A DNA stretch of 64,000 nucleotides from Enterobacterales bacterium (GTDB lineage Bacteria > Pseudomonadota > Gammaproteobacteria > Enterobacterales > GCA-2746155): contig JBLHLI010000001.1 of the NCBI GenBank assembly GCA_047618765.1, positions 8,449 to 72,448 of the forward strand, in the 5' to 3' direction. Both the position numbers and the translations under genes were made by a program. The notes under the pieces are model-generated. The model was given only the letters and a program-made list of their open reading frames with translations, did not search any database and was not told the origin of the DNA. Within the stretch, counting starts at the first letter, position 1, and the number at the start of each line of letters is the position of its first letter. Shown here in pieces: positions 31,872-53,565 of this stretch.

Positions 31872-32654
31872 GTGAAAATTATTGCAGTAATACCAGCACA
31901 CCTTGCTTCAGTAAGGTTCCCAAGAAAGATCTTATATCCAATTCACAACTTGCCAATGATAGAGCATGTGCGACGACGTGCTTTGCTCTCAAATGAAATC
32001 TCAAGGGTAATAGTTGCCACATGTGACAATGAAATCGCTAATGTTATTCGTGGATATGGGGGAGAGGTTGTTATGACAGCAAATACCCATACCAATGGTA
32101 CAACACGTGTTGCAGAAGCTATATCTGATATAGAGTGTAGCCACGTCATGTTATTACAAGGTGATGAACCTTTGCTCTTACCTAACCATATTAATTCATT
32201 TGTTGATGCAATTAAAAAAGAACCTGATGTAAAGGCATGGAATGCTACAGGGCCAATTGATAGTGAGGATGAGCTAGACAGGCATTCTTTTGTAAAATGT
32301 GCAGTTTCCCATACCAATGAAATTTTATACTGTTTTCGGCGTTCTCCTTGTTATAGTGATTTTATCCAACAAAAACGCTTCGTTAGAAAGATTTTAGGAA
32401 TTATTGCGTATCGTAAAGATTACCTATTGCAACTAGCATTATCGCCAGTCTCAGCGATAGAACAGGCTGAGTTTATAGAACAAATGCGAATTGTCGAAAA
32501 CGGAGTGAAATTAAAATCTATAGCTGTAAATGAAAGCTTACCTTCAATAAATGAACCGCAAGAAGCTGATATTGTTAAAAAATATATATCGGCTTCGCAA
32601 GAGCAGAAAAAGATACTGCAAGCTATTTTGAATCAAGACGATCTACCTGCGTAA
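31872..32654 (+). CDS. kdsB: KdsB-like 3-deoxy-ulosonate cytidylyltransferase, CMP-sugar synthetase 3
   Basis: [31 protein letters not shown] compares with E. coli KdsB [39 protein letters not shown] compares with NVQGDEPMI. GTG start. Confidence 0.75.
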   Translation: [260 protein letters not shown]

Positions 32655-32656
32655 CC

Positions 32657-34159
32657 GTGCAGCCTGTTAACGAAGAAGGATATCAAAAGCTTTGTAAAGC
32701 GAGTAAAAAAATTTTAACTGCTAGTGATGTTACTGTTGAGCGAATAAGTGTTAGCTGGCTTCATATATTGCGTGCCCACCCATCGTTTTTAAGTAAATAT
32801 AGTCATCTTTTTGAAAATGTTCATTGGTGTATGGCTTATGCCAAGTTGGTAGTAAAAAAAACACGCTACAAATGTATTTGGTTTATTAGAATAGTTCAAT
32901 CAAGCTTTATGGCTAGGTTTAACTACAGTAAAGACAGTCAAGACGAACATGTGGATGTATTATTTATATCCCACCTGTTAAATGCCGAACAATTGTTTAA
33001 TGAAAAAGATTTTTATTATGGAGATTTGGTTGATAAATTATTGAGCCAAAAATATACTGCGCATACAGCATTTATAAACCATACAAAGCTGCATGATATA
33101 AATAAAGTATTAGATGATGGTGGTGAAAAAGTAAATAAATATATTTTTTCTAATGCTTTGTCCTTAAAAGAAGAAATAAACATATTTAACAAATTAAAAA
33201 AAGAGTGCAAAGAGATTAACCGCATTGCTTTGTCGGAAAACTTGGATTTCAACAAAAATTTTTATAGGCAAGCCTCAGTTGAAGCATTGTCTCAAAATTC
33301 AGCATTCAACCTTCGTTTGGCTTGCCAGCTAGAAATGTTAATAAATAAATTACAAGCTAGATTTGTCGTGTTGACGTATGAAGGGCATGCATGGGAAAGA
33401 GTGTTTTGTTCTGTGGTAAGAAATTTTTTCCCTGATGTAAAAATAATTGCATATGTGCATTCTGTTTTGTTTTATAAGCAAGATTCCTTGTTTCAAAGCT
33501 TCGCCCAAGAATTTAAGCCTGACTATGTTTTAACCACTGGAGAGGTGTCAAAAAATCAGCTAAAAAAATCTCATGTTTATTCTAATATTCCTATTTCTGT
33601 ATTAGGCTCATCTCGTGTACTTGATAATAAAGAAAATGGCGATATGGCCTATAAAAATAACAATAAAAATGTTTGTTTGGTTCTGCCTGAAGGAATAATT
33701 AGTGAGTGTAATTTGTTGTTTGAATTTTCATTAGGGTGTGCAAAAATAATGCCATGCATTGATTTTATATGGAGGCTTCACCCAAGTGTTAGTTTTGATC
33801 TCCTATTAAAAGAAAACTGCAATTTAGAATTTTTGCCTAAAAATATTGTTTTATCTGACGCGTCTATTGAAGACGACATGTCAAGGAGTTCTTGGGGGTT
33901 GTATAGAGGGTCTACAGCTATAATTCAATCTGTCATTTCAGGTCTCACACCAATTTACCTTGAAGTGGAGGGCGAAATCACCATCAATCCATTATACGAA
34001 TTCAGCCATAAAATTAAAAAAGTAAAAGGTATTTCAGACTTTAAAAATATTTTTGAAAAAGCTAATGTCGATGATCAACCAAGTAAAGATTTAATGGATT
34101 ATTGTATAAAGATATATCAGCCGTATAATGTACATAGCTTAACGAAGATTATTCAATGA
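32657..34159 (+). CDS. Uncharacterised protein with HP motif; candidate ulosonic-acid (Kdo-like) transferase
   Basis: 500 aa. VCLVLPEG, WRLHPSVSF (HP 375-376), LYRGSTAIIQSVISGLTPIYL (about 43 residues later). Immediately follows the KdsB-like gene with a 2-nt gap. Confidence 0.35.
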   Translation: MQPVNEEGYQKLCKASKKILTASDVTVERISVSWLHILRAHPSFLSKYSHLFENVHWCMAYAKLVVKKTRYKCIWFIRIVQSSFMARFNYSKDSQDEHVDVLFISHLLNAEQLFNEKDFYYGDLVDKLLSQKYTAHTAFINHTKLHDINKVLDDGGEKVNKYIFSNALSLKEEINIFNKLKKECKEINRIALSENLDFNKNFYRQASVEALSQNSAFNLRLACQLEMLINKLQARFVVLTYEGHAWERVFCSVVRNFFPDVKIIAYVHSVLFYKQDSLFQSFAQEFKPDYVLTTGEVSKNQLKKSHVYSNIPISVLGSSRVLDNKENGDMAYKNNNKNVCLVLPEGIISECNLLFEFSLGCAKIMPCIDFIWRLHPSVSFDLLLKENCNLEFLPKNIVLSDASIEDDMSRSSWGLYRGSTAIIQSVISGLTPIYLEVEGEITINPLYEFSHKIKKVKGISDFKNIFEKANVDDQPSKDLMDYCIKIYQPYNVHSLTKIIQ

Positions 34160-39280: not shown

Positions 39281-40723
39281 ATGTCAGAATTCACTGAAAG
39301 TAAATTTCAATTAAAAAAATATTTAATGGTGTTTGTTTCTTTGCCTATTATATGTCTTTTTATTATGGGCGTTTTGGAATATCCGGGTGATGTAACCTAT
39401 TATATTATTTTTTCAGTTGTTTCAAATACGCTGTTATATTTTGGGTTTAGAGAGAATGCGATTTTTTTTGATGCATTTATCGGAGTTTTATTATGGCTTG
39501 GATTTTGGCTAAAGTTTTCATTTAGATTGGTGTTCTTAGAAGCCACGTTTAATGATCCGATAGGTATCTTTTCTGGTACGGCTAGTGAGTTTGACTATGC
39601 AATGCTGGTCTGCTCTGTAGGCTTGTTCGCTTTAATCTTGGCTAGTGCGGTGCGGGAAAAGTTTATATTTTGCTATAAGGAAAAAATGTACTTCAATGAA
39701 GATGCTTCATTATTTTTGTTTTACAAAAATAATAGAGTATGCTTATTACTGTTGTTTTTGTTAGTCGTTGTTGTTGTTTCAGCATCTAATTTGTACCTTG
39801 GTATTTACCAGAGAGGCACCATCCCCAAAACTGTTTTGCCGTATGGACTTGGAGGAGTTTATTCATGGTTGTTGCTTTTTGGTCTGTCATCATTCTCGGC
39901 GTTAATAATATGGTATGAATTAATATTGAAGAAAAAAACTATATTTTTAGTGATATTTATAGCCTTAATTGAAAGTTTTTTCTCCTGCGTTTCTTTGCTG
40001 AGTAGGGCCATGGTTATAAATAGTAGCTCACTATTATATGGATATTATAAAACTCTGAGATTAAATAAAATTGTATTTAGTAAGCGTTATTGCGCAATAA
40101 TTTTTTGTGTGTTTTTCATTCTTTTTGCGATATCAGTTTATAGTGTTAACTATATGAGGCTAAATGCGGTAACGAAACTAGCTCCAGGTGAGGTGATGTC
40201 GGAAACAACAAAAGCGACGGAGACTATAAGTAGTGTAAATGTTTTATTGATTGATAGGTGGGTCGGAATTGAAGGTGTTCTAGCTGTTTCGAGTTATAAT
40301 AATAAAGGCTGGGAACTTTGGAATAGAGCTTGGCAAGAAAAGATATTGTACGATAGAGCCAGTATTTATGATGCAGATATTGCTTTACCTCAAAATATAA
40401 ACCCTGATTTTAGTAAGCACCATTTTTTATCTGTACCAGGTGTGATTGCATTTTGGTTTTATCCTGGCTCATTTATGTTTCTTATGTTGGGTATGTTTTG
40501 CTTGGGGCTGGCTGCTGCGCTAATTGAAGTTTCTGTATATTATTTAGGCGGAAAGAATCTAATTTTATGTGCGCTATTGGCTCAGGTCGTGGCTTATCGT
40601 TATGCGCATTTCGGTTATGTACCACAACAGAGCTATTTGTTATTTGGCGCATTATATTTAAATTTGTTCTTGATTTATTTTTCTAATGTGTTTTTCACTT
40701 ATTGGTATAGAAGCAAGTCATGA
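39281..40723 (+). CDS. 480-aa polytopic membrane protein of unknown function
   Basis: Roughly a dozen hydrophobic segments. No recognisable catalytic motif. Tightly packed between the 812-aa membrane protein and the sugar-nucleotide genes. Confidence 0.4.
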   Translation: MSEFTESKFQLKKYLMVFVSLPIICLFIMGVLEYPGDVTYYIIFSVVSNTLLYFGFRENAIFFDAFIGVLLWLGFWLKFSFRLVFLEATFNDPIGIFSGTASEFDYAMLVCSVGLFALILASAVREKFIFCYKEKMYFNEDASLFLFYKNNRVCLLLLFLLVVVVVSASNLYLGIYQRGTIPKTVLPYGLGGVYSWLLLFGLSSFSALIIWYELILKKKTIFLVIFIALIESFFSCVSLLSRAMVINSSSLLYGYYKTLRLNKIVFSKRYCAIIFCVFFILFAISVYSVNYMRLNAVTKLAPGEVMSETTKATETISSVNVLLIDRWVGIEGVLAVSSYNNKGWELWNRAWQEKILYDRASIYDADIALPQNINPDFSKHHFLSVPGVIAFWFYPGSFMFLMLGMFCLGLAAALIEVSVYYLGGKNLILCALLAQVVAYRYAHFGYVPQQSYLLFGALYLNLFLIYFSNVFFTYWYRSKS

Positions 40724-41592
40724 AAATTTTAATATTGGGTGGCTCTGGCATGCTAGGGTTCCAGCTTTTTAAAGAGTGGCGTGAGTCACATACGGTAAGG
40801 CTTACTTTGCGTGGAAGTAAAGAAGATTACCCGACTAATACACTATTAAATGCTGATACTAATTATTTTAATGTTGATGTTTCATTAATTGATTGTTTGA
40901 AGTCAGTACTTAATGATTTTCGTCCAGATGTAGTTGTAAACGCGATTGGTATTACGAAGCAATTAACTGAGACTTTACCTGTTGAAGTCACCAATTATGT
41001 CAATGCCAGATTTCCTCACTTTTTGTCCGATATCTGTGGGCAGCATCAATGTAGATTGATCCATATGAGTAGCGATTGTGTCTTTTCTGGTAAGAAAGGT
41101 GATTATACCGAAGATGACAAACCTGATGCTGAAGACCTATATGGGCAGAGTAAGTATTTGGGAGAGGTGTCTGCTTCTCACGTACTGACCTTACGAAAAT
41201 CAACTATTGGTTTGGAGTTATCTTCGTCCCATGGTTTGATTGAATGGTTCTTGCAGCAGCAGGGTAATGTAAGAGGGTATACAAAAGCAATTTACTCTGG
41301 TTTGATTGCATCTGAGTTGGCGTCAGTCATAGAGAAAGTTTTGCTGGGCTATCCTGGGTTGAATGGAGTTTTTCATGTTGCTAGCCAAGCGATTAGTAAA
41401 TATGATTTATTGCTGAAATTAAGCCAGCATTTGAATCGAAAAGATATTAATATCATCCCTTTTGATGACTTTATATGCGACCGTAGTTTAAATGGCAGTC
41501 GTTTTTCTGAAATAACAGGATATAAAGCCCCTTCTTGGGATGATATGATAGTAAAATTAGCATCTGAAATAAGCAAAAGAGAATCTACATGA
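40720..41592 (+). CDS. RmlD-like 4-reductase (WbvR-like) of an L-6-deoxy-HexNAc pathway
   Basis: MKILILGGSGMLG and YGQSKYLGE (YxxxK). 4-nt overlaps on both sides with the membrane-protein gene and the dehydratase gene. Confidence 0.6.
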   Translation: MKILILGGSGMLGFQLFKEWRESHTVRLTLRGSKEDYPTNTLLNADTNYFNVDVSLIDCLKSVLNDFRPDVVVNAIGITKQLTETLPVEVTNYVNARFPHFLSDICGQHQCRLIHMSSDCVFSGKKGDYTEDDKPDAEDLYGQSKYLGEVSASHVLTLRKSTIGLELSSSHGLIEWFLQQQGNVRGYTKAIYSGLIASELASVIEKVLLGYPGLNGVFHVASQAISKYDLLLKLSQHLNRKDINIIPFDDFICDRSLNGSRFSEITGYKAPSWDDMIVKLASEISKREST

Positions 41593-42650
41593 TCCTAGAT
41601 AAAAAAGTTGTTCTAGTAACTGGTGGTACCGGTTCTATGGGAAAGGTCTTGGTAAGGCGGTTATTGTCGGGTGAGCTTGGCACACCTACTAAAGTCATTG
41701 TCATGTCTCGTGACGAAGGTAAACAGCATGATATGCGCTTAGCATACCTGCATAAAACAGTCACTACAGATGAAGTCATTTATCGTAATTTTCAACAGAC
41801 TTTAGAGTTTCGTATTGGTGATGTTAGAGATTATCACGATGTTTGTTCCGCGGTTAAGAGTGCTGATGTGGTGATTAATGCAGCAGCATTAAAGCAAGTG
41901 CCTACCTGTGAATATTTTCCTGATCAGGCAGTGTTAACCAATTGCATTGGAGGCATGAACATTGTCCGAGCCATTCGAGAAAATGATTATTCTGTAGAGA
42001 CTGTAGTGGGAATTAGTACCGATAAAGCGGCAAAGCCTGTCAATGTCATGGGAATGACTAAGGCGATTCAAGAGCGTATCTTTACATCTGCGAATATTTT
42101 GAGCCCAGAAACCCGCTTCATTTGTGTACGCTATGGCAATGTAATGGCTTCACGCGGTTCAGTGATGCCTTTATTTCTTGATCAGGTTACTAATGGTGGT
42201 CCATTAACAGTGACTGTACCTGGTATGACACGATTCTTATTAACGCTCAATCAAGCCGTTGATACAGTATTTGCAGCATTGGAAACGGCAGAAGCAGGCG
42301 AAATACTAGTGCCAAATGCGCCTGCAGCCACTGTACTTAACCTTGCTAAGGCATTAATTGGCGAGCGTGATATAGAGATAAAAATAACTGGTATTCGACC
42401 TGGCGAGAAAATGCATGAAGTCATGGTGTCGGAGGAAGAGATTCATCATACCGTAAAACGTGGTGATTATTATGCAATAAAAGCAATGTTGCCGGAGTTG
42501 TTAAATGATAACGGAGAAAATATCTTAACTAAAGAATTTAGCTCCGATGATGATGTTTTAGATTTGGAAGGCACTAGAGAGTTATTGAAAAAAAATAATC
42601 TATTGCCTGGTATGGAAATTCTTTCAGAAGGTGGTGAACTATTAACATGA
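41589..42650 (+). CDS. Soluble CapD/FnlA/WbvB/PseB-type UDP-GlcNAc 4,6-dehydratase (5-inverting class)
   Basis: VTGGTGSMGKVL, NAAALKQVPTCEY, STDKAAKPVNVMGMTKA, RYGNVMASRGSV. Confidence 0.75.
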   Translation: MILDKKVVLVTGGTGSMGKVLVRRLLSGELGTPTKVIVMSRDEGKQHDMRLAYLHKTVTTDEVIYRNFQQTLEFRIGDVRDYHDVCSAVKSADVVINAAALKQVPTCEYFPDQAVLTNCIGGMNIVRAIRENDYSVETVVGISTDKAAKPVNVMGMTKAIQERIFTSANILSPETRFICVRYGNVMASRGSVMPLFLDQVTNGGPLTVTVPGMTRFLLTLNQAVDTVFAALETAEAGEILVPNAPAATVLNLAKALIGERDIEIKITGIRPGEKMHEVMVSEEEIHHTVKRGDYYAIKAMLPELLNDNGENILTKEFSSDDDVLDLEGTRELLKKNNLLPGMEILSEGGELLT

Positions 42651-43780
42651 AGAAATTAAAAGTTGCAACTATAGTGGGGACCCGCCCAGAATTAATTAAA
42701 TTGTCACGTGTTATTGCGGAGCTGGACAATACTGTTGAACATATTTTAGTGCATACAGGGCAGAATTATGATGACGAATTGAATAAAATATTTTTTGATG
42801 ATTTAGAAATCCGGCAGCCCGATTATTATCTTGATGCTGCAGGAGAAAATGCTACACAAACTATTGCACAAGTAATAGCAAAATCAGATGATGTGCTGGC
42901 AAAAGAAAAACCAGATGCAGTATTGTTATATGGTGATACTAACAGCTGTATGGCTGCAATAGTGGCTAAGCGTAGGAAGATACCAGTTTTTCATATGGAA
43001 GCAGGAAATCGTTCTTTTGATGAGAGGGTTCCAGAAGAAATTAATCGTCGTATTGTTGATCATATTAGCGACATCAATATGCCCTTAACTGAGCATGCCA
43101 GACGCTATCTATTGGATGAAGGTATAAGACCAGAAACAATTATTAAAACAGGTTCATGCATGCAAGAGGTGCTTGAATATTATGCGCCTAAAATAGATAA
43201 GTCTGATGTTTTGTCTCGATTAAACTTAAAAGATAAACAGTATTTCTTATTAAGTGCACATAGAGAAGAAAATGTAGATTCACCTGAACGTCTTAAAAAT
43301 TTGTTAGAGTCATTGAATACACTAGTTAATGAATATGATATGCCGGTTATATTTTCTGTTCATCCAAGAACACGAAAACAACTTGAACAACTGGGATATG
43401 ATAATATTGATGAAAGGATTAAATTTAATAAAGCATTAGGCTTTCTTGATTACATTAAACTCCAGCAACATGCAAAATGTGTAATTTCTGATAGCGGTAC
43501 AATTGCTGAAGAATCCTCGTTACTTAATTTGCCAGCTGTGACTATCAGGCAAGCACATGAACGGCCTGAGATGGTAGATGAAGGAACGCTGATTATGACT
43601 GACATTGTTCCGGAGAGATTACTTTTAGCCATTAAAACTACTTTACGTCAATATGAGTCTGATGATTATCAGGTTCGACAAGTACAAGACTATCGGGGTG
43701 GCAAGGTATCAATAAAAGTATCACGTACGATCCAAAGCTATACTGACTACATCAATAGAACAGTGTGGAGAAAAGCGTAG
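42647..43780 (+). CDS. Non-hydrolysing UDP-HexNAc 2-epimerase (WecB/FnlC/WbvD type)
   Basis: IVGTRPELIKLSRV and HMEAGNRSFDERVPEEINRRIVDHISD. Confidence 0.8.
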   Translation: MKKLKVATIVGTRPELIKLSRVIAELDNTVEHILVHTGQNYDDELNKIFFDDLEIRQPDYYLDAAGENATQTIAQVIAKSDDVLAKEKPDAVLLYGDTNSCMAAIVAKRRKIPVFHMEAGNRSFDERVPEEINRRIVDHISDINMPLTEHARRYLLDEGIRPETIIKTGSCMQEVLEYYAPKIDKSDVLSRLNLKDKQYFLLSAHREENVDSPERLKNLLESLNTLVNEYDMPVIFSVHPRTRKQLEQLGYDNIDERIKFNKALGFLDYIKLQQHAKCVISDSGTIAEESSLLNLPAVTIRQAHERPEMVDEGTLIMTDIVPERLLLAIKTTLRQYESDDYQVRQVQDYRGGKVSIKVSRTIQSYTDYINRTVWRKA

Positions 43781-43792
43781 CGCTATTATTGT

Positions 43793-45010
43793 ATGAAGAT
43801 AGTTTTTATTTCACAGTGGTATTATCCTGAACCAGATGGCAGGGTCAGTGCTTTAGCTGAGGGCCTTGTTGAAAAAGGGCATGAGGTTACAGTCATTACG
43901 GCTTTTCCAAATTATCCGCAAGGGAAAATATATGATGGTTATAAGGTTTCCCTTTTTCAGCGAGAAGCAATAAATGGCGTGAATGTTATTAGGCTTCCCA
44001 TTTTTGCTGATCATAGTCATTCGGTAATAAAGCGAATGCTCAATTACCTTTCTTTCTTTTTGTCATTATTCTTTCTTGCGCCATGGTTCATTAAAAAAGT
44101 TGATATTTTTTGGAGTTATACTCCTTTTGTTGTTATTCCTACGATTTGGTGTGGTCTGCTATTTAGAAAGCCATATGTGTTAGAAATTACCGATATATGG
44201 CCGGATACTATCAATGAAACCGGAATGATAAATAACAAAAAAATCTTACAGGGGCTTGATCGAGTAGCCCAGATTGGATATCGACACGCTCAAGCAATTA
44301 CCGTTCAAAACCCAGGATTTAAAACCACATTGATTGCTCGGGGTGTAAGCCAAGAAAAAATACACGTCATTGAAAACTGGGCAGATGAAGAGGTTTTTTA
44401 TCCTCTCCCTTATGATAATGAACTTGCAGAAAAGTATGGGCTTGATGGAAAATTCAATATTACTTTTGCGGGTAATATGGGGGTTGCGCAGGATTTATCT
44501 AATATTATAAAAGCAGCAGAAACTTGCCAGAAATACGAAAAAATACAGTTTGTTTTCATTGGCGATGGCGTATGTTTATCCGAGACTAAGCAGCAGGTAC
44601 AAGAAAAAAAATTAAGCAATGTTAAGTTTATAGCAAGGAAGCCATTACAAGACATGGCTGCACTATTTGCAATATCAGACGTTTTGTTGGTGACACTTGC
44701 GGACAAACCCATATTTGAACTTACATTGCCATCGAAAGCTCAGGCCTACATGGCTTGTGAAAAACCCTTATTAATTGCCAAGCGTGGCGATGATATTAAG
44801 TTTTTGAAAGAAGAGGGGTGTGCGGTAATCGTTGAACCTGAAAATTTTAGCCAGTTAGCGGCAGCTGTGTTCCAGCTGTATTCACTCCCTGTAGAGAAAA
44901 GAGATGAAATGGGAAAGAAAAGCCTGAGCTTATATAAGCAAAAGTATACAAAAAATATTTTGTTAAAAAAGATGGAAGCTGTTTTTTTTGATGTGATTAA
45001 TTCCCAATGA
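43793..45010 (+). CDS. GT4 glycosyltransferase, WbuB-like (L-6-deoxy-HexNAc transferase type)
   Basis: MKIVFISQWYYPEP N-terminus typical of the WbuB group. C-terminal GT-B E(x7)E-like region. Directly follows the three sugar-nucleotide genes. Confidence 0.65.
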   Translation: MKIVFISQWYYPEPDGRVSALAEGLVEKGHEVTVITAFPNYPQGKIYDGYKVSLFQREAINGVNVIRLPIFADHSHSVIKRMLNYLSFFLSLFFLAPWFIKKVDIFWSYTPFVVIPTIWCGLLFRKPYVLEITDIWPDTINETGMINNKKILQGLDRVAQIGYRHAQAITVQNPGFKTTLIARGVSQEKIHVIENWADEEVFYPLPYDNELAEKYGLDGKFNITFAGNMGVAQDLSNIIKAAETCQKYEKIQFVFIGDGVCLSETKQQVQEKKLSNVKFIARKPLQDMAALFAISDVLLVTLADKPIFELTLPSKAQAYMACEKPLLIAKRGDDIKFLKEEGCAVIVEPENFSQLAAAVFQLYSLPVEKRDEMGKKSLSLYKQKYTKNILLKKMEAVFFDVINSQ

Positions 45011-46035
45011 CATTCGATAGCTATTCTTTTTTAGGAATTATTTTTTCTCTGGCAGGATTATTAACTGTTATAGGGATTGTATATTACAAGCAGCTTGCTA
45101 ATCGTTTTGGCATAGTGGCAAAAAAGAATTTCAGAACGTTACATGAAGTCGATGTGCCGAGGGGCAGTGGGGTGATTCTTGGTTTAGTGTTTCTTTTTTT
45201 TCTGATTATTTTATGGTGTTTCGCTTATATAAATGACTCTATATTTTCCATTTTACTGATTGGTGGTTTAAGTTCAACGTTGTTTGGTTTGCTTGATGAT
45301 ATTATGGATATCAAAGCGCGTATAAAGTTAATTATACAGTTGCTGCTAAGTGTAATGATATTGTACTCGTTGAATGACAAGTCTAAGCTTATTGTTGAGC
45401 AGTTTTCATTTTTAACAATAATAGGAATTATTCTTTTATTTATTGCTGTTGCTTGGTTTTTGAATCTTGTTAATTTTATGGATGGTGCAGATGGCTTGCT
45501 AGCTACTTGTACCTGCTGCGTTTGTGTAATGCTTTTTGGGCTCTTGTATCTGAATCATTCTGATCTTGATGTTATGATTCTTAGTGGATTGTTGGCGGTG
45601 GTATGTTTAGCTTTCCTCCTTTTTAATTGGCCTCCTGCATCGGTATTTATGGGGGATGCGGGCAGTTTATTTATTGCTTTTGTTCTCGGTGTTTTCATCA
45701 TAAATACAATAGATAAGAGCATCAGCCCTTGGCTTTGGTTGATCATGTTGGGTTATATACTAACTGATACGTGTTTAACATTACTTTTAAGAATAATATT
45801 AGTGAAAAAGTGGTATGGGGCGCATAGAAGCCATGCCTATCAAAATTTTGTCAGAATTCGAGGAGAGCATAAAACTGCATTATATATTATCCTTGCTTAT
45901 CATCTGTTTTGGCTAATGCCGCTATTAGTTTTGGCGAATACTTATCAAACCTATGAAATAGCTTTTGCCTTATTAGCCGTGTTGCCAGTATCTTGCGGGA
46001 CAATAAAATATGGGCCTCTGTTATCCAAGGATTAA
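45007..46035 (+). CDS. WecA/WbpL/MraY-family polyprenyl-phosphate HexNAc-1-phosphate transferase (initiating enzyme)
   Basis: Multi-TM. LLDDIMDI, NLVNFMDGADGL and FMGDAGS motifs of the GT4/MraY superfamily. Confidence 0.8.
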   Translation: MTFDSYSFLGIIFSLAGLLTVIGIVYYKQLANRFGIVAKKNFRTLHEVDVPRGSGVILGLVFLFFLIILWCFAYINDSIFSILLIGGLSSTLFGLLDDIMDIKARIKLIIQLLLSVMILYSLNDKSKLIVEQFSFLTIIGIILLFIAVAWFLNLVNFMDGADGLLATCTCCVCVMLFGLLYLNHSDLDVMILSGLLAVVCLAFLLFNWPPASVFMGDAGSLFIAFVLGVFIINTIDKSISPWLWLIMLGYILTDTCLTLLLRIILVKKWYGAHRSHAYQNFVRIRGEHKTALYIILAYHLFWLMPLLVLANTYQTYEIAFALLAVLPVSCGTIKYGPLLSKD

Positions 46036-46044
46036 AAATATAAT

Positions 46045-46710
46045 ATGAATCCATCTATAAAAAAACTTATTGAACAGGGCGTTAAGATACATGATCCAAA
46101 TAGGTTGGATATTAGAGGTAGTCTTGAATGCGGTGACAATACTGAGATAGATATTAATGTCATATTTGAGGGAAAGGTTGTATTGGGCTCAAATGTTAAG
46201 ATAGGCCCCCACTGTATTATTAAAGATTCCAGCATTGCTGATAATGTAGAAATCAAAGCCTACACGATGATAGAAGAATCAATGATTGGCTCAAATAGCT
46301 TTGCTGGGCCGTATTGTAGGATTCGCCCAGGCACAAAAGTGGGTAATTATGTTCAGTTAGGAAATTTTTTGGAAATTAAAAATACTATAATAGGGGATGG
46401 GTGTCGGATAAATCATATGAGCTTTCTTGGTGATGCTGAGTTAGGTAAAAAAGTCACACTAGGTGCTGGTGTAATTACATGTAATTACGATGGTAAAACG
46501 ACACATGAAACATTAATTAATGACGATGCGTTTGTGGGCTCGGGGACTAACCTTATCGCACCTATAGAGGTTGGCGTGAATGCGACTATTGGCGCAGGTT
46601 CAACGATTACTAAGAATGTTGAGGCTGAGTATTTAACCTTAGCGCGTAGCCGACAACATATAGTAAAGGACTGGCAGGGGCCAAAGGATTTGAATCAGAA
46701 TGATGACTGA
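46045..46710 (+). CDS. Stand-alone GlmU C-terminal-domain homolog (LbH acetyltransferase, no uridyltransferase domain)
   Basis: LGDAELGKKVTLGAGVITCNYDGKTTHETLINDDAFVGSGTNLIAPIEVGVNATIGAGSTITKNV aligns by eye with E. coli GlmU [65 protein letters not shown]. Only 221 aa. Confidence 0.75.
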   Translation: MNPSIKKLIEQGVKIHDPNRLDIRGSLECGDNTEIDINVIFEGKVVLGSNVKIGPHCIIKDSSIADNVEIKAYTMIEESMIGSNSFAGPYCRIRPGTKVGNYVQLGNFLEIKNTIIGDGCRINHMSFLGDAELGKKVTLGAGVITCNYDGKTTHETLINDDAFVGSGTNLIAPIEVGVNATIGAGSTITKNVEAEYLTLARSRQHIVKDWQGPKDLNQNDD

Positions 46711-47695
46711 GCCTTTAAATATTGCTGTTTGGGGCTTGGGAAAGCATGCCTTAAACCGGATCTTGCCAGCTATTAAAGGCTGCCAACACTTGAGCTTATA
46801 TGGTGTTTATACCAGAGATCAGTCAGTGTTAAGTCGGGTTGGAGAGCATTACCAATGTAAAGCCTTTAGCTCCGAAGCAGAGCTGTTAAACGATAGTCAC
46901 CTAGACGTTATTTATCTGTCAACACCGATTGGTTTACATTACTCCCAAGGTAAATCAGTCTTAACAGCAAATAAGCATCTTTGGTGTGAAAAGCCGCTGG
47001 CTACTCATTATAGGCATGCATGTGAACTGATTGAACTAGCCAGAGAGAAAGCCTTGAGCGTGTTTGAAGGCTTCATGTATTTATACCATCCCCAATTTCT
47101 ACATTTAAATGATTATATTGAGAATAATCATGCCCAGTTAGATCTGATAGAAAGCCGTTTTACAATTCCTATGCTAGAAAAGCCAGGGTTCCGTCACAAC
47201 CCTGATTTGGGCGGCTCCGCTTTATATGATATTGGTTGTTACCCATTATCGTTAGTGCAGGCATTAATGGGCAAACAAAATAGTGACATTAAATATTGCC
47301 GCATTAAAAGAGACGCTCAGCTTGGTGTCGACGTGCGTGGAAAAGTACTACTTGAATATGAGAGTGGTGTACAGGCAAGCTTGGATTGGGGTATGGGGCT
47401 GGGGTATACTAACTCTGTTAGTGTTTTGGGCGCGGAAGGCCGAGTGTTCGCGGATAAGATATTCTCCAAGCCTGATGAATATGAGGCGAGTGTTGTCAGT
47501 TATGATCAATATGGTAATCAAATTGAACAAAAGTCTTCATCTTGCAACCAATTTACCGCAATGTTTGATGCATTTGCAGAAAAAGTGACAAATCTATTAT
47601 CAATTGAAGATGAATATAATAGAATGCTCGGCCGTACAAAATTATTAGAAAATATCAATAAATATGCGAATTCTCGATTCGTGACAAAATTTTGA
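46700..47695 (+). CDS. Gfo/Idh/MocA-family sugar-nucleotide oxidoreductase
   Basis: NIAVWGLGKHALNRILPAI Rossmann start and CEKPLA motif. Confidence 0.7.
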   Translation: MMTEPLNIAVWGLGKHALNRILPAIKGCQHLSLYGVYTRDQSVLSRVGEHYQCKAFSSEAELLNDSHLDVIYLSTPIGLHYSQGKSVLTANKHLWCEKPLATHYRHACELIELAREKALSVFEGFMYLYHPQFLHLNDYIENNHAQLDLIESRFTIPMLEKPGFRHNPDLGGSALYDIGCYPLSLVQALMGKQNSDIKYCRIKRDAQLGVDVRGKVLLEYESGVQASLDWGMGLGYTNSVSVLGAEGRVFADKIFSKPDEYEASVVSYDQYGNQIEQKSSSCNQFTAMFDAFAEKVTNLLSIEDEYNRMLGRTKLLENINKYANSRFVTKF

Positions 47696-47705
47696 CAATT
47701 AAATT

Positions 47706-48161
47706 GTGAGTAAAAATATGCAAAGCTGGAAAAATGTAAAGTTAGATGATGAGTCTATGTGGCCTAAAGAAGGTATCGTTAAACTCGAGGAGCCACATAC
47801 GGATGCTAGAGGATCTATTCAATCATTGGTTAATTTTCCAATGAAGAATCTGTCTTTGATCTCTTCTAAAAAAGGATGTGTTCGCTCAAACCACTACCAT
47901 CAAACAGATTGGCATTATATGTATGTCTTATCAGGTAGCTTTGATTATTTCTTCAGACCGACAGGCTCTGATGAAGAACCTCAAAAAGTGACAGTAAAAG
48001 CAGGTGAGATGGTATTTACTCCTCCTATGGAAGATCATGCGACTGTTTTTCTAGAAGATTGTGATTTATTGGCAATGAGCCGTAATCCACGAGACCAAGA
48101 AGCTTATGAGTCTGATGTTAAACGAGTTATTTTGGTTGCTCCAGAAGATGTTTCGTTATGA
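47706..48161 (+). CDS. Cupin-fold sugar-nucleotide epimerase/ketoisomerase-like protein
   Basis: DARGSIQSL and NHYHQTDWHYMYVLSG are cupin motifs. GTG at 47706 or ATG at 47718. Confidence 0.55.
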   Translation: MSKNMQSWKNVKLDDESMWPKEGIVKLEEPHTDARGSIQSLVNFPMKNLSLISSKKGCVRSNHYHQTDWHYMYVLSGSFDYFFRPTGSDEEPQKVTVKAGEMVFTPPMEDHATVFLEDCDLLAMSRNPRDQEAYESDVKRVILVAPEDVSL

Positions 48162-49411
48162 GTGAAAAAGATTATTACCTAAGGCAAACATGTCGTATGT
48201 GTTTGTCTCAGGATCTGAAAAAAGTGATGGCGTTGACGCCTACACCTCCAGGAAATAATTTCGTTACTAAGGAATGTCTTGAGCTAGAACAGCCATGCTA
48301 CCCGCTTGAGTTGCATTTTTGTGAGCACTGTAGTCATGTGCAATTAGGGCATGTTGTTGATCCAGAAATTTTGTATCAAAATGATTACTCTTATGTGTCT
48401 TCAACATCCAGTCATTTTGTCAATCACCTTCGTGATTATGCTGATCATATGATCAGCAAATATTCTTTGCAAAAGAATGAATTTGTCATTGATATTGGTT
48501 CTAACGATGGTACTTGTTTAAGCTTTTTTCAGAAGCAAGGAATGCAAGTGTTAGGTGTGGATCCAGCGACCAACATTGCTGAGATTGCTAATGAAAATGG
48601 TGTTGAGACAATAGCTGATTTTTTCTGTCTACAGACAGCGGAGAATATCAAAACGACACATGGCAAAGCAAAACTGATTACTTCACATAATGCTTGTGCA
48701 CACATTGATGATTTGAGTGGTGTAATACAAGGCGTAAAAAATTTACTTGATGACGATGGTATTTTTTGTCTCGAAGTTGGGTATTTGTATGATGTTTATG
48801 GTAATAACTGGTTTGACACTATTTATCATGAACATGTAGACTTTCATCTAGTTAAGCCCTTTAGCTATTTGTTTTCACGCTTTGATATGGAAGTCATTTC
48901 AGTAGAGCGCATCAGCCCACAGGGTGGCTCTATCAGAGTTGTTGCTCAACATAAAGGTGGGCCTTATGAAAAAGATACTAGTGAAAAAGAGTTAATGCAG
49001 CTTGAGCAAGATGTTGGCTTATATACTGCTAGCACTTATATGAATTTTGCAGAAAAAATCAATCGGGTTAAACAAGACTTACGTGAGTTGATTAACAAAT
49101 TAAAAGCTGAAGGAAAGACTATAGCAGCATTTGGGGCTCCGACTAAAGCCACTACTTTAATGGCTCATTTCGAACTTAGCCAGAATGATATTGATTATAT
49201 TGTCGATGAAAACCCTTTAAAACAAGGTTTATATTCGCCGGGGCTTCATATTCCTGTTTTTTCTGCGAATAAAATTTATACCGACAAACCTGATTATGTT
49301 TTGATATTGGCGTGGAACTTTGCTGAGCCTATCATGAAAAACCATGCGGAATATCTACTGCAGGGTGGAAACTTTATTGTGCCTATGCCGCAGCCTAAGA
49401 TAGTTAATTAG
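48158..49411 (+). CDS. NDP-hexose C-methyltransferase (TylCIII-like; Zn-ribbon + SAM MTase + C-MT C-terminal domain)
   Basis: CRMCLSQDL...CEHCSHVQL, VIDIGSNDGTCL, and C-terminal DYVLILAWNFAEPIMK. Confidence 0.7.
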   Translation: MSEKDYYLRQTCRMCLSQDLKKVMALTPTPPGNNFVTKECLELEQPCYPLELHFCEHCSHVQLGHVVDPEILYQNDYSYVSSTSSHFVNHLRDYADHMISKYSLQKNEFVIDIGSNDGTCLSFFQKQGMQVLGVDPATNIAEIANENGVETIADFFCLQTAENIKTTHGKAKLITSHNACAHIDDLSGVIQGVKNLLDDDGIFCLEVGYLYDVYGNNWFDTIYHEHVDFHLVKPFSYLFSRFDMEVISVERISPQGGSIRVVAQHKGGPYEKDTSEKELMQLEQDVGLYTASTYMNFAEKINRVKQDLRELINKLKAEGKTIAAFGAPTKATTLMAHFELSQNDIDYIVDENPLKQGLYSPGLHIPVFSANKIYTDKPDYVLILAWNFAEPIMKNHAEYLLQGGNFIVPMPQPKIVN

Positions 49412-49439
49412 CGTTTATTTTTCACATTAAATTTATTAG

Positions 49440-50117
49440 TTGTATATTATGACAAAGAAAATATTGGTTATAGCTCCTCACCCTGATGATGAAACTTTGG
49501 GTGTTGGCGGTACAATTGCAAAGCATATTGAGAAAGGGGATAAAGTCACCATTCTTACCGTGTCTGGTCATTTACCGCCGCTTTATAACGAAGAAGCATT
49601 TCAGGAAACTCTTGACGAAGCGAATAAAGCGTATGCAATTCTAGGTGTGACAGAATCAATATTCCTAAAAATACCTGCAACGTGTATCGGTGAGAAGCCT
49701 GTTAGAGAATTTAATAAAAAAATTAACGATGTTGTCGCTCAGGTTGAACCCGATACTGTATTTGTTCCTTATCCAGACAGGCATATTGACCACCGTTTAG
49801 TTTTTGATGCTGCTCTGGTTGCTACTCGACCCGTTTATCATGGTGCGAATATCGAAATCGTTGCGGCGTATGAAACGCTATCAGAAACGCATTGGAATGC
49901 TCCGCATATAGAGCCAAATTTCACGCCTAATTGGGTTGTTGATATTACCCAGCAAATAGATAAAAAGGAGTCAGCGCTTCGTTGTTACTCCAGTCAAATT
50001 CCAGCATTTCCAGGCGCACGTTCTATTGAAGCAATGAGAGCTTTAGCAGTGTTCAGGGGGACACAGGTTGGTTTTGCTTATGGTGAAGGTTTCCATATTA
50101 TTCGAAAATTGAATTGA
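49440..50117 (+). CDS. PIG-L/LmbE-family N-deacetylase
   Basis: VIAPHPDDETLGVGGTIAKH and RHIDHR. TTG at 49440; the ATG at 49449 is more likely. Confidence 0.8.
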   Translation: MYIMTKKILVIAPHPDDETLGVGGTIAKHIEKGDKVTILTVSGHLPPLYNEEAFQETLDEANKAYAILGVTESIFLKIPATCIGEKPVREFNKKINDVVAQVEPDTVFVPYPDRHIDHRLVFDAALVATRPVYHGANIEIVAAYETLSETHWNAPHIEPNFTPNWVVDITQQIDKKESALRCYSSQIPAFPGARSIEAMRALAVFRGTQVGFAYGEGFHIIRKLN

Positions 50118-50202
50118 TAATGATCTTCCCCACTAAATTAGTACTGATGCTTTATGATGTTTAAGCTACCTAACAAGACTAGAGTATGTAGAATGACATA
50201 TA

Positions 50203-52158
50203 TTGGTTAATTTTGAGATCCTTATGGAAAAAAGTCGCTTTATTTACCAGCTTGCAACAATGAGACGCTCTCATAAACGCTTTATTATGTTGTTGAGCGA
50301 TATTATTGCTTTACCTATTGCTTTATGGTCGTCTTATGCACTACGTTTATCTGAGTGGTGGCCTGAGCCCTATCTCCTTGCTTCTTGGTGGTTGTTTGCT
50401 GTAACTCCAATTATTGGTGTTTATGTTTTCGCTCGCCTTGGCCTATATCGTGCGGTAGTACGTTTTATGGGCACTCAGGCTATCTGGGCGGTTGTCAAAG
50501 GAGTTTCTCTGTTAGCACTCTTTTTGTGGGCGGTAGCCTTTGTTTTTCAAATTCAAGCTTTTCCTCGTTCTATTCCTATTAACTTTGCCTTAGTGGCATT
50601 GGTTTACGTTGGAGGTAGTAGACTGTTAGTTCGCCATTATTATCATTGGTTTGTACGGCATCGTTTAGAAAAAGATGCAGTGCTGATTTATGGCGCGGGT
50701 GGTGCGGGTATTCAGTTGGCTACGGCTTTGTCTGATGGACGTGAATATTACCCTGTAGGCTTTATAGATGATGACTCTTCATTATGGAAGTCTACTATTA
50801 AGGGGTTGCCTGTTTACGGAATTGATTCCTTAGAAAAGGTCATCGAGAAAAAAAATGTAAGGCATATATTATTAGCAGTGCCAAATATTACGAATAAAGA
50901 ACGTAAGAAAATTTTAGAGTGCTTGAGTCGTTACAGTGTTCATATCCAAACTATACCGTCCATGCCGGACCTTTTATTAGGTAAAGCTTTGGTTGAACAG
51001 TTACAGGAAGTTGAAATTGAAGATTTACTAGGGCGTGATTCTGTTCCCCCCATGCCGGAGTTGATGGCCAAATGCATTACTAATAAGAGCGTAATGATAA
51101 CGGGAGCAGGCGGCTCTATTGGCTCTGAATTATGTCGACAAGTGTTAGCTAAAAAGCCAAAAATACTATTGCTGTTTGAGCAAAGCGAGTTTAACTTATA
51201 TCAAATAGAACAAGAGCTTCAATTTAAAAAAAGTGAATTTCAGTGTGATACGGTGATTGTTGCACTTTTAGGTTCGGTTGTTGATAGAGCGCGTGTTCAT
51301 AATACCTTGTCACATTTTATCGTAGATACCATTTATCATGCCGCCGCTTATAAGCATGTACCATTAGTCGAGCGTAATATTATTGAGGGAGTAACCAATA
51401 ATATCTTCGGTACTCAAGTGGTTGCCGAAGAGGCGGCGCGAGCCCATGTTAGCTACTTTATTTTGATTTCGACCGATAAAGCTGTGCGTCCAACCAATGT
51501 TATGGGGGCAACCAAGCGCTTTTCTGAGCTTATTTTACAATCCTTGTCTATGGATAGTCCAACGGTCTTCTCCATGGTTCGCTTTGGTAATGTACTAGGA
51601 TCTTCAGGTTCTGTAGTACCTTTATTTCGTAATCAAATTAAAGCTGGGGGGCCGATTACCGTAACTCATAAAGAGATCAATCGCTTTTTTATGACCATTT
51701 CTGAAGCGGCTTCCCTAGTAATTCAAGCAGGTTCAATGGCTAAAGGAGGGGATGTGTTTGTGCTCGATATGGGTGAGTCAGTAAAAATTGTTGATTTGGC
51801 AAAACGTATGGTGCAGTTATCAGGCTTGGAGCTTAAAACAGAAGAGAATCCTGAGGGTGATATTGAAATTAAATATACAGGTTTGCGTCCAGCTGAAAAA
51901 TTATACGAAGAGCTTTTAGTGGGAGATAATGTCATTGGTACTGATCACCCTAAAATAATGCGGGCTAATGAGGAGTTTTTTCACGCAGACGTGATCAAAA
52001 GGTTTTTACTGAAAATAAAAACAGCATGTGAGGCAGGTGATTGCTCGGAATTAACGTTGATTCTCAAAGAGGCTGTAGTTGGCTACAGGCCTCATGATTT
52101 AATAGTTGATCCATTGTCGCTTGCTGTGGTGAAGTCTAATGTAGTTAAGCTTGTCTAG
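50203..52158 (+). CDS. WbpM/PglF/CapD-type membrane-anchored UDP-HexNAc 4,6-dehydratase
   Basis: Four N-terminal TM segments. IYGAGGAGIQLA, ITGAGGSIGSEL, HAAAYKHVPL, STDKAVRPTNVMGATKR. TTG at 50203 or ATG at 50224. Confidence 0.85.
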   Translation: MVNFEILMEKSRFIYQLATMRRSHKRFIMLLSDIIALPIALWSSYALRLSEWWPEPYLLASWWLFAVTPIIGVYVFARLGLYRAVVRFMGTQAIWAVVKGVSLLALFLWAVAFVFQIQAFPRSIPINFALVALVYVGGSRLLVRHYYHWFVRHRLEKDAVLIYGAGGAGIQLATALSDGREYYPVGFIDDDSSLWKSTIKGLPVYGIDSLEKVIEKKNVRHILLAVPNITNKERKKILECLSRYSVHIQTIPSMPDLLLGKALVEQLQEVEIEDLLGRDSVPPMPELMAKCITNKSVMITGAGGSIGSELCRQVLAKKPKILLLFEQSEFNLYQIEQELQFKKSEFQCDTVIVALLGSVVDRARVHNTLSHFIVDTIYHAAAYKHVPLVERNIIEGVTNNIFGTQVVAEEAARAHVSYFILISTDKAVRPTNVMGATKRFSELILQSLSMDSPTVFSMVRFGNVLGSSGSVVPLFRNQIKAGGPITVTHKEINRFFMTISEAASLVIQAGSMAKGGDVFVLDMGESVKIVDLAKRMVQLSGLELKTEENPEGDIEIKYTGLRPAEKLYEELLVGDNVIGTDHPKIMRANEEFFHADVIKRFLLKIKTACEAGDCSELTLILKEAVVGYRPHDLIVDPLSLAVVKSNVVKLV

Positions 52159-52609: not shown

Positions 52610-52686
52610 TGGCGGACCGGACGGGACTCGAACCCGCGACCTCCGGCGTGACAGGCCGGCATTCTAACCAGCTGAACTACCGGTCC
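52610..52686 (-). tRNA. tRNA-Asp (anticodon GTC)
   Basis: The reverse complement reads GGACCGGTAGTTCAGCTGGTTAGAATGCCGGCCTGTCACGCCGGAGGTCGCGGGTTCGAGTCCCGTCCGGTCCGCCA. Cloverleaf with CTGTCAC anticodon loop, GGTTCGAGTCC T-arm and encoded CCA. Confidence 0.95.
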
Positions 52687-52737: not shown

Positions 52738-52813
52738 TGGTGGGTGGTACAGGGATCGAACCTGTGACCTACGCCTTGTAAGGGCGCCGCTCTCCCAGCT
52801 GAGCTAACCACCC
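52738..52813 (-). tRNA. tRNA-Val (anticodon TAC)
   Basis: The reverse complement reads GGGTGGTTAGCTCAGCTGGGAGAGCGGCGCCCTTACAAGGCGTAGGTCACAGGTTCGATCCCTGTACCACCCACCA. CTTACAA anticodon loop, GGTTCGATCC T-arm and encoded CCA. Confidence 0.95.
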
Positions 52814-52962: not shown

Positions 52963-53565
52963 ATGCCTGCGTGTATTCGATATCTATTGGTTTCTTGTGG
53001 TTTACTAGTTTTTGCGGCTAGCGCAGTAGCGCTTGTTGACATATATGAGTTTGACAGCACTTCGCAACGTCATCGTTATCAAGCGTTAAGCCAAGAGTTG
53101 CGTTGCCCAAAATGCCAGAATCAAAATTTAGCGGGATCTGATTCGCAAATTGCCGGTGATTTACGTCGTGAGCTGTATCGATTGCTGACCGAAGGTAAAA
53201 CTGATGCTGAAATTAAAACTTTTATGGTTGATCGCTACGGTGAGTTTGTTTTGTATAAACCGCGCCTACAAAAAGCCACCATAGTCTTATGGATCTTACC
53301 GATCATATTATTGATAATTGGTGTTTTTGTACTTCGTTTTTTGGTTAATCGTCATAAGGCGAAAGCCGTTGCGGGCACGAATAGTAAAACCGATAAAATG
53401 TCTGCAGAAGGGCTATTGGAATCACTTTCGCCGCAAGAGCAGTCAGTGCTCGATCATTTGCTTGCGCCTACGGCCAGCACGCCAAGTAATGAATTTACTG
53501 GCAGTGCAGCTAAGAGTTCAGCTAAGAGTTCAGCTAAGAGTTCAGCCAAGGATGAATCTTCATGA
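52963..53565 (+). CDS. ccmH: Cytochrome c-type biogenesis protein CcmH (thiol-disulfide, CXXC)
   Basis: Signal/TM start. LRCPKCQNQNLAGSDSQIAGDLRRELY...FMVDRYGEFVLYKP closely parallels the E. coli CcmH N-domain. Followed by a TM segment. Confidence 0.9.
   Translation: MPACIRYLLVSCGLLVFAASAVALVDIYEFDSTSQRHRYQALSQELRCPKCQNQNLAGSDSQIAGDLRRELYRLLTEGKTDAEIKTFMVDRYGEFVLYKPRLQKATIVLWILPIILLIIGVFVLRFLVNRHKAKAVAGTNSKTDKMSAEGLLESLSPQEQSVLDHLLAPTASTPSNEFTGSAAKSSAKSSAKSSAKDESS
53509..53550 (+). repeat. In-frame 12-bp tandem repeat (gctaagagttca x3 plus partial) encoding (AKSS)n at the CcmH C-terminus
   Basis: 53509-53520, 53521-53532 and 53533-53544 are identical, followed by gccaag. Translates as SAKSSAKSSAKSSAK. 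Confidence 0.9.

Follow-up and report, generated by a model that had tools for sequence, protein, structure and literature searches.

Introduction

Sugars with a C-methyl branch are known mainly from the antibiotics of actinomycetes, and from a few lipopolysaccharides. The actinomycete pathways to mycarose, tetronitrose and kijanose start from deoxythymidine diphosphate (dTDP)-glucose, use a 2,3-dehydratase and 4-ketoreductases of the short-chain dehydrogenase/reductase (SDR) type, and serve to decorate antibiotics. In Pseudomonas aeruginosa WbpM, WbpK or WbpV, and WbpL give undecaprenyl-linked N-acetyl-D-quinovosamine (D-QuiNAc) or N-acetyl-D-fucosamine (D-FucNAc) for the O-antigen. For virenose (6-deoxy-3-C-methyl-gulose), a sugar of Coxiella burnetii lipopolysaccharide, a TylCIII-type 3-C-methyltransferase acting on a nucleoside diphosphate (NDP)-4-keto-6-deoxyhexose has been predicted in silico (PMC3539893). 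The cupin domain of CapF is a zinc-dependent epimerase of the uridine diphosphate (UDP)-4-keto-6-deoxy-N-acetylhexosamine (HexNAc) that is produced by CapE (PMC5393024). Here we describe a seven-gene cassette in a 64,000-nucleotide stretch of DNA from an Enterobacterales bacterium (GenBank assembly GCA_047618765.1, contig JBLHLI010000001.1, positions 8,449 to 72,448; hereafter the window) and compare it with these systems.

The cassette encodes, in this order, a WbpL-like transferase of the GT4 family, a GlmU-like acetyltransferase, a Gfo/Idh/MocA oxidoreductase (Gfo), a cupin, a C-methyltransferase, a PIG-L deacetylase and a WbpM-like dehydratase (Table 1). From their sequences we think it somewhat probable that the genes at 45007-52158 act as one conserved cassette which would convert UDP-N-acetylglucosamine (UDP-GlcNAc) to a UDP-2-acetamido-2,6-dideoxy-C-methyl-hexose, most likely the 3-C-methyl form, to be installed as the first undecaprenyl-linked residue of a surface glycan.

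Results

The methyltransferase is related to sugar C-3 methyltransferases

An earlier reading of the window, made from the sequence only, had proposed a three-domain NDP-hexose C-methyltransferase with a zinc ribbon. We found that all three domains score above the Pfam cut-offs: Methyltransf_13 (7e-18, residues 12-73), Methyltransf_23 (1e-11, residues 92-247) and Methyltransf_14 (2e-54, residues 255-411). The protein has the architecture of a zinc ribbon, a class I S-adenosylmethionine (SAM) domain and a C-terminal C-methyltransferase domain. A sequence search of the PDB gave a full-length match to MtmC (4rv9; E=1e-100, 41% identity), followed by TcaB9 (5e-60, 30% identity) and KijD1 (6e-60). 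Strong full-length matches were limited to these three sugar C-3 methyltransferases. The remaining PDB methyltransferases scored only about 1e-4, with matches restricted to the Rossmann domain.

The zinc cysteines C12, C15, C55 and C58 (CxxC...CxxC) do not vary among 12 homologues and line up with those of MtmC and TcaB9. Residues Y77, H182, Y223, E225 and H226 align with TcaB9 Y76, H181, Y222, E224 and H225, the active-site residues reportedly probed by mutation in the Holden laboratory. All five are kept in the window protein, in MtmC, in TcaB9 and in 8/8 aligned relatives. By family, then, its sequence marks the protein as a genuine NDP-hexose C-methyltransferase, as had been proposed; a grouping with O- or N-methyltransferases was not seen. 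Its most likely predicted activity is methyl transfer to the carbon beside the 4-keto group of an NDP-sugar. At the homology level, the earlier suggestion of a C-methyl branched sugar has good support.

The seven genes form a cassette conserved across phyla

The Gfo, cupin, methyltransferase and PIG-L open reading frames (ORFs) are all intact, tightly packed and on the plus strand. The ORF listing and Pfam bear out the four co-directional genes of the sequence-only reading, with two starts corrected: homologue alignments and the source gene calls favor ATG 47718 as the start of the cupin and ATG 49449 as that of PIG-L. The overlaps reported at 46700 and 48158 are real. The GlmU-like gene ends at 46710 and overlaps the Gfo gene, which starts at 46700, by 11 nucleotides; the cupin stop codon, ending at 48161, overlaps the methyltransferase start by 4 nucleotides (48158-48161). 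In the source gene call the WbpM-like gene starts at 50224, not 50203.

We scanned one genome per species by tblastn with the proteins of the window and found relatives that fall into two tiers. In tier 1 the methyltransferase is roughly at least 50% identical, nearly always at least 53%; in tier 2 identity is mostly 44-51%. Counts were taken from the clustered ORFs of 27 non-redundant tier-1 loci, several of which are cut by contig ends. The methyltransferase is present in all 27, PIG-L in 26, the cupin, the GT4 transferase and Gfo in 24 each, and the GlmU-like gene in 19. Other genes of the locus follow at lower counts (WbuB-like glycosyltransferase 15, WbpM 14, 2-epimerase 11, FnlA 8). PIG-L is the most tightly linked partner of the methyltransferase, and WbpM adjoins PIG-L in each of the 14 loci counted for it. 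The cassette genes mostly keep one order across related loci, and where the methyltransferase is 61-77% identical we found the same seven-gene arrangement. Thus the grouping of the four genes is not due to chance, and their recurrence in 24-26 of the 27 loci supports the view that they are one functional unit. The limits drawn by the sequence-only reading have to be widened, however. The four genes do belong together, but the GlmU-like and WbpM genes are not their boundaries: GlmU-like (19/27), WbpL-like (24/27) and WbpM (14/27) are members.

Tier-1 carriers were found among Gammaproteobacteria, Candidatus Electronema, Methylomarinum, Burkholderiales, Gemmatimonadota, Pedobacter, Chitinophagaceae, Bacteroidota, Opitutus and Verrucomicrobiota, and also among Elusimicrobia, SAR86, SAR116, Marinimicrobia, Syntrophales, Coxiellaceae, Vicinamibacterales, Acidimicrobiia and Paracoccaceae. 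In the most closely related locus a TIR-domain gene (L002 12868-14172, L003 6340-7644) is the second gene downstream of the one for the WbpM-like protein, with an NTP_transferase gene in between. The sequence-only reading had expected a rare sugar. This holds for described chemistry but not for genomes: at E<=1e-30 the methyltransferase has over 7,400 homologues among the matches listed, and PIG-L has over 5,300 at E<=1e-40.

Tier-2 loci, in Magnetospirillum and many Rhodospirillales, carry the cupin and methyltransferase genes followed by a UDP-glucuronate-decarboxylase-like SDR gene (5e-61) and then a Gfo/Idh/MocA gene. PIG-L, GlmU-like and WbpM genes are absent from the tier-2 loci, so that PIG-L and the GlmU-like gene are restricted to the HexNAc-type cassette. 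Therefore these two genes track a 2-acetamido substrate. We rejected orthology of the Gfo proteins of the two tiers, since they are 25% identical, have different best PDB matches, and tier 2 has a His in place of the Tyr of tier 1. Most of about 50 loci (L036-L088) hold this sister cassette, for example L051 7501-11210 of Paramagnetospirillum caucaseum. From its gene content (cupin, methyltransferase, UDP-glucuronate decarboxylase-like SDR, Gfo) we predict an undescribed C-methyl pentose. Cultured Magnetospirillum species carry the tier-2 variant only. We also sought a cultured carrier of the full cassette with a known glycan; the genome scan and a PIG-L search gave only metagenome-assembled genomes (MAGs), single-cell genomes and metagenome proteins.

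The cupin resembles the CapF epimerase domain and is coupled to the methyltransferase

The cupin matches PF14667, the CapF C-terminal type (2.8e-07), and Cupin_2 (6.8e-06). Residues H59, H61, H66 and H107 fit the canonical metal-cupin motif and are invariant among the homologues aligned. By sequence alone the PDB gave marginal matches only (E about 0.02). The best AlphaFold model reached a predicted local distance difference test score (pLDDT) of 82; the other four models were poor. The five best PDB structural matches of the model are all the cupin domain of Staphylococcus aureus CapF (E=2e-9, TM 0.68, 25% identity), and no RmlC- or FdtA-type sugar enzyme is among the best 50. The protein is a cupin alone, without the N-terminal SDR reductase domain, and is hence not an orthologue of CapF or FnlB. 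We propose, by analogy with the CapF domain, that it is an epimerase acting beside a 4-keto group. This refines the "epimerase/ketoisomerase-like" label that it had been given.

The cupin is the most conserved protein of the cassette (56-86% identity across phyla). In both tiers its gene lies directly upstream of the methyltransferase gene at almost every locus. Searching 1.8 billion cluster representatives, we recovered a protein (P0305, 561 amino acids, metagenomic) in which this cupin is naturally fused to a complete three-domain C-methyltransferase. The overlapping genes, the adjacency in both tiers and the fusion show that the two proteins are coupled. Another protein, P0282, is a GT2-cupin fusion.

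A different role for the cupin is suggested by the 290-residue reductase encoded at 40720-41592, which does not carry the cupin domain of CapF/FnlB, the very domain that the cassette cupin resembles. The two could form a split CapF/FnlB of the L-FucNAc or L-QuiNAc pathway, leaving the cupin outside methyl-sugar synthesis. We find this scarcely credible and rejected it: the cupin gene overlaps the methyltransferase gene and is fused to it in P0305, and it accompanies the methyltransferase in loci that have neither FnlA nor the reductase, genes which only 7-8 of the 27 loci possess.

The Gfo protein is related to a sugar ketoreductase

The Gfo protein has the two-domain fold of the Gfo/Idh/MocA family (PF01408 2e-20, PF22725 1.5e-13). 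Its best PDB match is the sugar 3-ketoreductase KijD10 (3rbv, 4e-34), with the next family at 1e-18. The lysine of its EKP motif and the tyrosine of its DIGxYP motif (DIGCYP) align with Lys102 and Tyr186 of KijD10, a tyrosine replacing the usual histidine of the family. This suggests a reductase, dependent on NAD(P)H, of a sugar keto group, and we propose that it would act at C4; identity to KijD10 is about 35%, too low for regiospecificity to be read off.

The relationship to KijD10, a C3 ketoreductase, also raises a route through a 3-keto sugar. Here the cupin would be a 3,4-ketoisomerase, or Gfo a C3 oxidoreductase, the methyl group would go to C4 or C2, and Gfo would reduce C3. Some sugar 3,4-ketoisomerases are indeed small cupins. 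Against this, the best structural matches of the cupin are the CapF epimerase domain, with no FdtA-type enzyme among the 50, the methyltransferase has the full catalytic set of enzymes whose methylation site is C3 of a 4-keto sugar, and the resemblance to KijD10 does not extend to a reading of which carbon is reduced. We give this route a slim chance and keep to methylation at C3 with reduction at C4.

PIG-L and the GlmU-like protein suggest removal and restoration of the acetyl group

PIG-L scores well above its Pfam cut-off (PF02585, 7.5e-21; 75 against 28 bits). It scores below the equivalog cut-off for BshB1 (1.5e-28; 100 against 182 bits) and is therefore not a BshB. Its PDB matches are diacetylchitobiose deacetylase (9e-19) and BshB1 (7e-13), and its sequence and an alignment to 3we7 show the PHPDDE and HxDH metal/catalytic motifs. 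We propose that it strips the N-acetyl group from a UDP-4-keto-6-deoxy-HexNAc intermediate.

The GlmU-like protein aligns solely to GlmU residues 241-452 (TIGR01173 3e-80; PDB 2v0h 4e-66). The uridylyltransferase domain is not present, and the protein falls below the TIGR01173 equivalog cut-off (270 against 367 bits). The window protein retains the GlmU catalytic residues R333, E349, K351, H363, N386 and S405, as do 16-20 of 20 cassette orthologues. GlmU Y366 is F in 18 of the 20 and N377 is T, I or V in all of them, while K392 is V, T, N or S in at least 17, with no lysine among the residues listed. In the Escherichia coli structures Y366, N377 and K392 are contacts to glucosamine-1-phosphate. 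The changes at these positions indicate a specialised N-acetyltransferase with a different acceptor, not a spare GlmU, and we propose that it re-acetylates the C2 amine. We also considered that the protein is part of a split GlmU supplying UDP-GlcNAc, and rejected this: there is no partner nucleotidyltransferase among the window ORFs of at least 120 amino acids, and the acceptor-pocket residues are consistently unlike those of GlmU. In Candidatus Electronema halotolerans (L007/L009 5291-6544) the GlmU-like protein has 417 amino acids, of which residues 158-414 match GlmU 198-453. Its N-terminal 157 residues gave no PDB match; they may be a decayed uridylyltransferase domain showing the origin of the truncated form.

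The sequence-only reading had predicted a de-N-acetylated end product. This appears doubtful: the cassette includes a dedicated N-acetyltransferase, and the substrates of WecA/WbpL-type transferases are 2-acetamido sugars, which makes a re-N-acetylated final sugar likelier. If the C2 amine did stay free in the final sugar, PIG-L would act late, on the UDP- or undecaprenyl-linked sugar, and the GlmU-like enzyme elsewhere, for example at another position. We judge this unlikely. In its favor, PIG-L is linked more tightly to the methyltransferase (26/27) than the GlmU-like gene is (19/27), some cassettes, such as that of SAR116 (L015), are entirely without a GlmU-like gene, and characterised PIG-L enzymes act on alpha-linked GlcNAc glycosides. 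The GlmU-like gene nevertheless overlaps the Gfo gene and retains the catalytic residues of the GlmU N-acetyltransferase. With no aminotransferase in the cassette, the only amine on hand is that at C2, and the initiating transferase is of a type that takes acetylated sugars.

A further explanation for PIG-L is that de-N-acetylation primes loss of the C2 amine. This would give a UDP-3,4-diketo-2,6-dideoxy sugar and, after C3 reduction and C3 methylation, a mycarose-type sugar made from UDP-GlcNAc without a 2,3-dehydratase. In favor of this, 2,6-dideoxy sugars are the substrates of the closest solved relatives of both Gfo (KijD10) and the methyltransferase (MtmC), a 2,3-dehydratase is missing from the cassette, and almost every cassette includes PIG-L. 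Such a route would, however, leave the GlmU-like N-acetyltransferase without an amine and C4 reduction without an enzyme, its elimination step has no known precedent, and WbpL-type transferases are not known to accept its product. We consider it highly improbable and retain the route in which the amine is acetylated again.

The 4-keto substrate most likely comes from WbpM

The hexose 4,6-dehydratases of the locus are solely FnlA-like (41589) and WbpM-like (50203), and both act on UDP-GlcNAc. Among window ORFs of at least 120 amino acids we found no RmlA, RmlB, Gmd or other sugar-1-phosphate nucleotidyltransferase. The WbpM-like protein has a Polysacc_synt_2 domain (PF02719, 1e-119, residues 297-589) and an N-terminal CoA_binding_3 domain (PF13727, residues 91-252). 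As the dehydratase that travels with the cassette, WbpM is most likely the source of the 4-keto substrate, in agreement with the sequence-only reading. FnlA was considered for this role and is less likely (8/27 loci against 14/27 for WbpM). The SDR-type 4-ketoreductase that is usual in WbpM/WbpL routes is not in the cassette. The WbpL-like transferase matches PF00953 (8e-32) and TIGR02380 wecA (9e-22, under the cut-off of that model). We propose that it performs the last step, loading the finished sugar onto undecaprenyl phosphate.

A proposed pathway

We infer each substrate, the order of steps, the methylated position, and the role of removing and restoring the acetyl group. WbpM, by established knowledge of its family, would dehydrate UDP-GlcNAc to UDP-2-acetamido-2,6-dideoxy-hex-4-ulose. 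PIG-L would then take off the N-acetyl group and leave a free C2 amine. The TcaB9/MtmC-type methyltransferase would form a C3 enolate beside the 4-keto group and add a methyl group from SAM. The CapF-like metal cupin would epimerise C5 or C3, beside the keto group, before the KijD10-like Gfo reduces that group. Finally the truncated GlmU-like enzyme would re-acetylate the C2 amine, and the WbpL-like transferase would transfer the sugar-1-phosphate to undecaprenyl phosphate. The genes lie in exactly the opposite order to these reactions, which is suggestive only.

Several points weigh against this pathway. The closest characterised relative of Gfo acts on C3 instead of C4. Were C3 to become quaternary, an epimerase for that carbon would be superfluous, which makes the exact step of the cupin ambiguous. 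The GlmU-like gene is missing from 8 of the 27 cassettes; re-acetylation is therefore not universal. In about 9 loci there is no WbpM within 8 kb. The recurrence of cupin, methyltransferase and Gfo across the tiers holds at the family level only, the tier-2 Gfo being of another subfamily. Glycan structures are not known for any carrier, and almost all of the relatives recovered are MAGs or single-cell genomes. Why an acetyl group should be removed and then restored is conjecture.

The cassette lies at the end of a large glycan locus

The window holds a low-GC (guanine plus cytosine) glycan locus of about 52 kb, which also contains many methyltransferases and an ATP-binding cassette (ABC) exporter. 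Two tRNA genes directly after the WbpM-like gene mark its 3' end, and GC rises from about 0.38 in the locus to 0.43-0.48 beyond them. Just upstream of the cassette an L-sugar module encodes an RmlD-like reductase, an FnlA-like dehydratase/epimerase, a 2-epimerase and a WbuB-like glycosyltransferase. These genes co-occur with the cassette in 7, 8, 11 and 15 of the 27 loci, respectively, and the module probably supplies a second sugar.

Elsewhere in the locus are three NeuB paralogues, a KdsA-like DAHP_synth_1 gene, two cytidine monophosphate (CMP)-sugar synthetase-like genes and an HpcH-type aldolase gene. This set suggests that several nonulosonic or ulosonic acid pathways lie side by side. 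Several long ORFs have no Pfam match at E<=1e-6, among them an 812-residue protein and a very hydrophobic 480-residue protein, possibly a polymerase or ligase. The sole long minus-strand ORF of the locus that does not overlap a plus-strand gene is 25316-26296. ORF 52963-53565, CcmH-like by sequence reading, has a short C-terminal serine/alanine/lysine repeat (SAKSSAKSSAKSSAK).

Table 1. Genes of the cassette and other features of the window
Feature	Position	Strand	Size	Remark
WbpL/WecA-type polyprenyl-phosphate HexNAc-1-phosphate transferase, GT4 family	45007-46035	+	342 aa	
Truncated GlmU-like left-handed beta-helix N-acetyltransferase	46045-46710	+	221 aa	Without uridylyltransferase domain
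Gfo/Idh/MocA oxidoreductase, KijD10-like	46700-47695	+	331 aa	
Stand-alone metal-type cupin	47718-48161	+	147 aa	Mechanical ORF from GTG 47706
Three-domain SAM-dependent NDP-hexose C-methyltransferase (predicted)	48158-49411	+	417 aa	
PIG-L/LmbE-family zinc deacetylase	49449-50117	+	222 aa	Mechanical ORF from TTG 49440
WbpM/PglF-type membrane-anchored UDP-GlcNAc 4,6-dehydratase	50203-52158	+		Start uncertain, 50203 or 50224
L-sugar module	40720-45010			RmlD-like reductase at 40720-41592 (290 aa)
NeuB paralogues (three), KdsA-like, CMP-sugar synthetase-like (two), HpcH-type aldolase	6726-7766, 12672-13709, 20802-21845, 27214-28095, 9807-10514, 31872-32654, 29467-30258			
Long ORFs without Pfam match (included among several)	36839-39277, 39281-40723, 22194-23810, 32657-34159, 25316-26296			25316-26296 on - strand
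tRNA genes (two)	52613-52686, 52741-52813	-		Directly after WbpM-like gene
CcmH-like ORF	52963-53565			

Discussion

Our data suggest a broader proposal, which we offer tentatively and consider a little short of probable. It is that bacteria of many phyla share an undescribed way of C-methylating UDP-HexNAc, in which transient deacetylation by PIG-L and restoration by a GlmU-derived enzyme would enable a TcaB9-type methyltransferase and a CapF-like cupin to act. The product, 2-acetamido-2,6-dideoxy-3-C-methyl-hexose, would be a new branched amino sugar and the starting residue of surface glycans in many uncultured bacteria of marine and groundwater habitats, and the sister cassette would lead to a C-methyl pentose. 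If this is true, nucleotide-sugar biosynthesis would gain a new monosaccharide and a new logic of "deprotect, modify, reprotect", and enzymes for glyco-engineering of UDP-HexNAc scaffolds would become available. To judge from the cassette, the surface glycans of abundant uncultured bacteria (among them SAR86, SAR116, Marinimicrobia, cable bacteria and Gemmatimonadota) may commonly begin with a C-methylated N-acetyl-hexosamine. Its seven genes, all of known enzyme families, are a defined set amenable to in vitro reconstitution.

In an incomplete literature search we found no published description of this gene combination, the sole related paper being the in silico prediction for virenose. Each enzyme family is already known, as is the general logic of dehydratase, C-methylation, epimerase and reductase. 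What is new is the UDP-HexNAc scaffold, the pairing of PIG-L with a GlmU-derived acetyltransferase, the stand-alone CapF-like cupin, a Gfo protein in place of an SDR, and delivery by a WbpL-type transferase.

The closest likeness in chemistry is to the actinomycete pathways. The methyltransferases of mycarose (TylC3, EryBIII, MtmC), tetronitrose (TcaB9) and kijanose (KijD1, in a pathway that also has KijD10) belong to the same three-domain family as the cassette enzyme and have identical catalytic residues. Both the kijanose pathway and the cassette have a KijD10-type Gfo/Idh/MocA sugar ketoreductase, and in both the actinomycete pathways and the proposed route a dehydratase is followed by methylation beside the 4-keto group, then an epimerase, then a reductase. 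In contrast to those pathways the cassette would begin with UDP-GlcNAc, through WbpM. It also differs in having PIG-L, a GlmU-derived N-acetyltransferase, a cupin that is CapF-like and not RmlC-like, and a WbpL-type initiating transferase, and in its association with a surface glycan.

In gene arrangement the locus resembles that of P. aeruginosa. A WbpM-type and a WbpL-type gene lie at its 3' end, and the pair sits in an O-antigen-like locus beside an L-sugar module of the FnlA/WbuB type, as in that organism. However, where P. aeruginosa has a single SDR 4-ketoreductase, the cassette has five genes between wbpL and wbpM. The virenose route likewise joins a Gram-negative surface glycan to a predicted 3-C-methyltransferase, but it is predicted to start from guanosine diphosphate (GDP)-mannose or dTDP-glucose, with no amino group and no PIG-L, GlmU-like or CapF-like cupin partners. 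Finally, the cupin is structurally closest to the C-terminal domain of CapF, of the CapF/FnlB type in the UDP-L-FucNAc pathway. CapF is a fused SDR-cupin, whereas the cassette cupin, at about 25% identity, stands alone and is genetically coupled to a methyltransferase.

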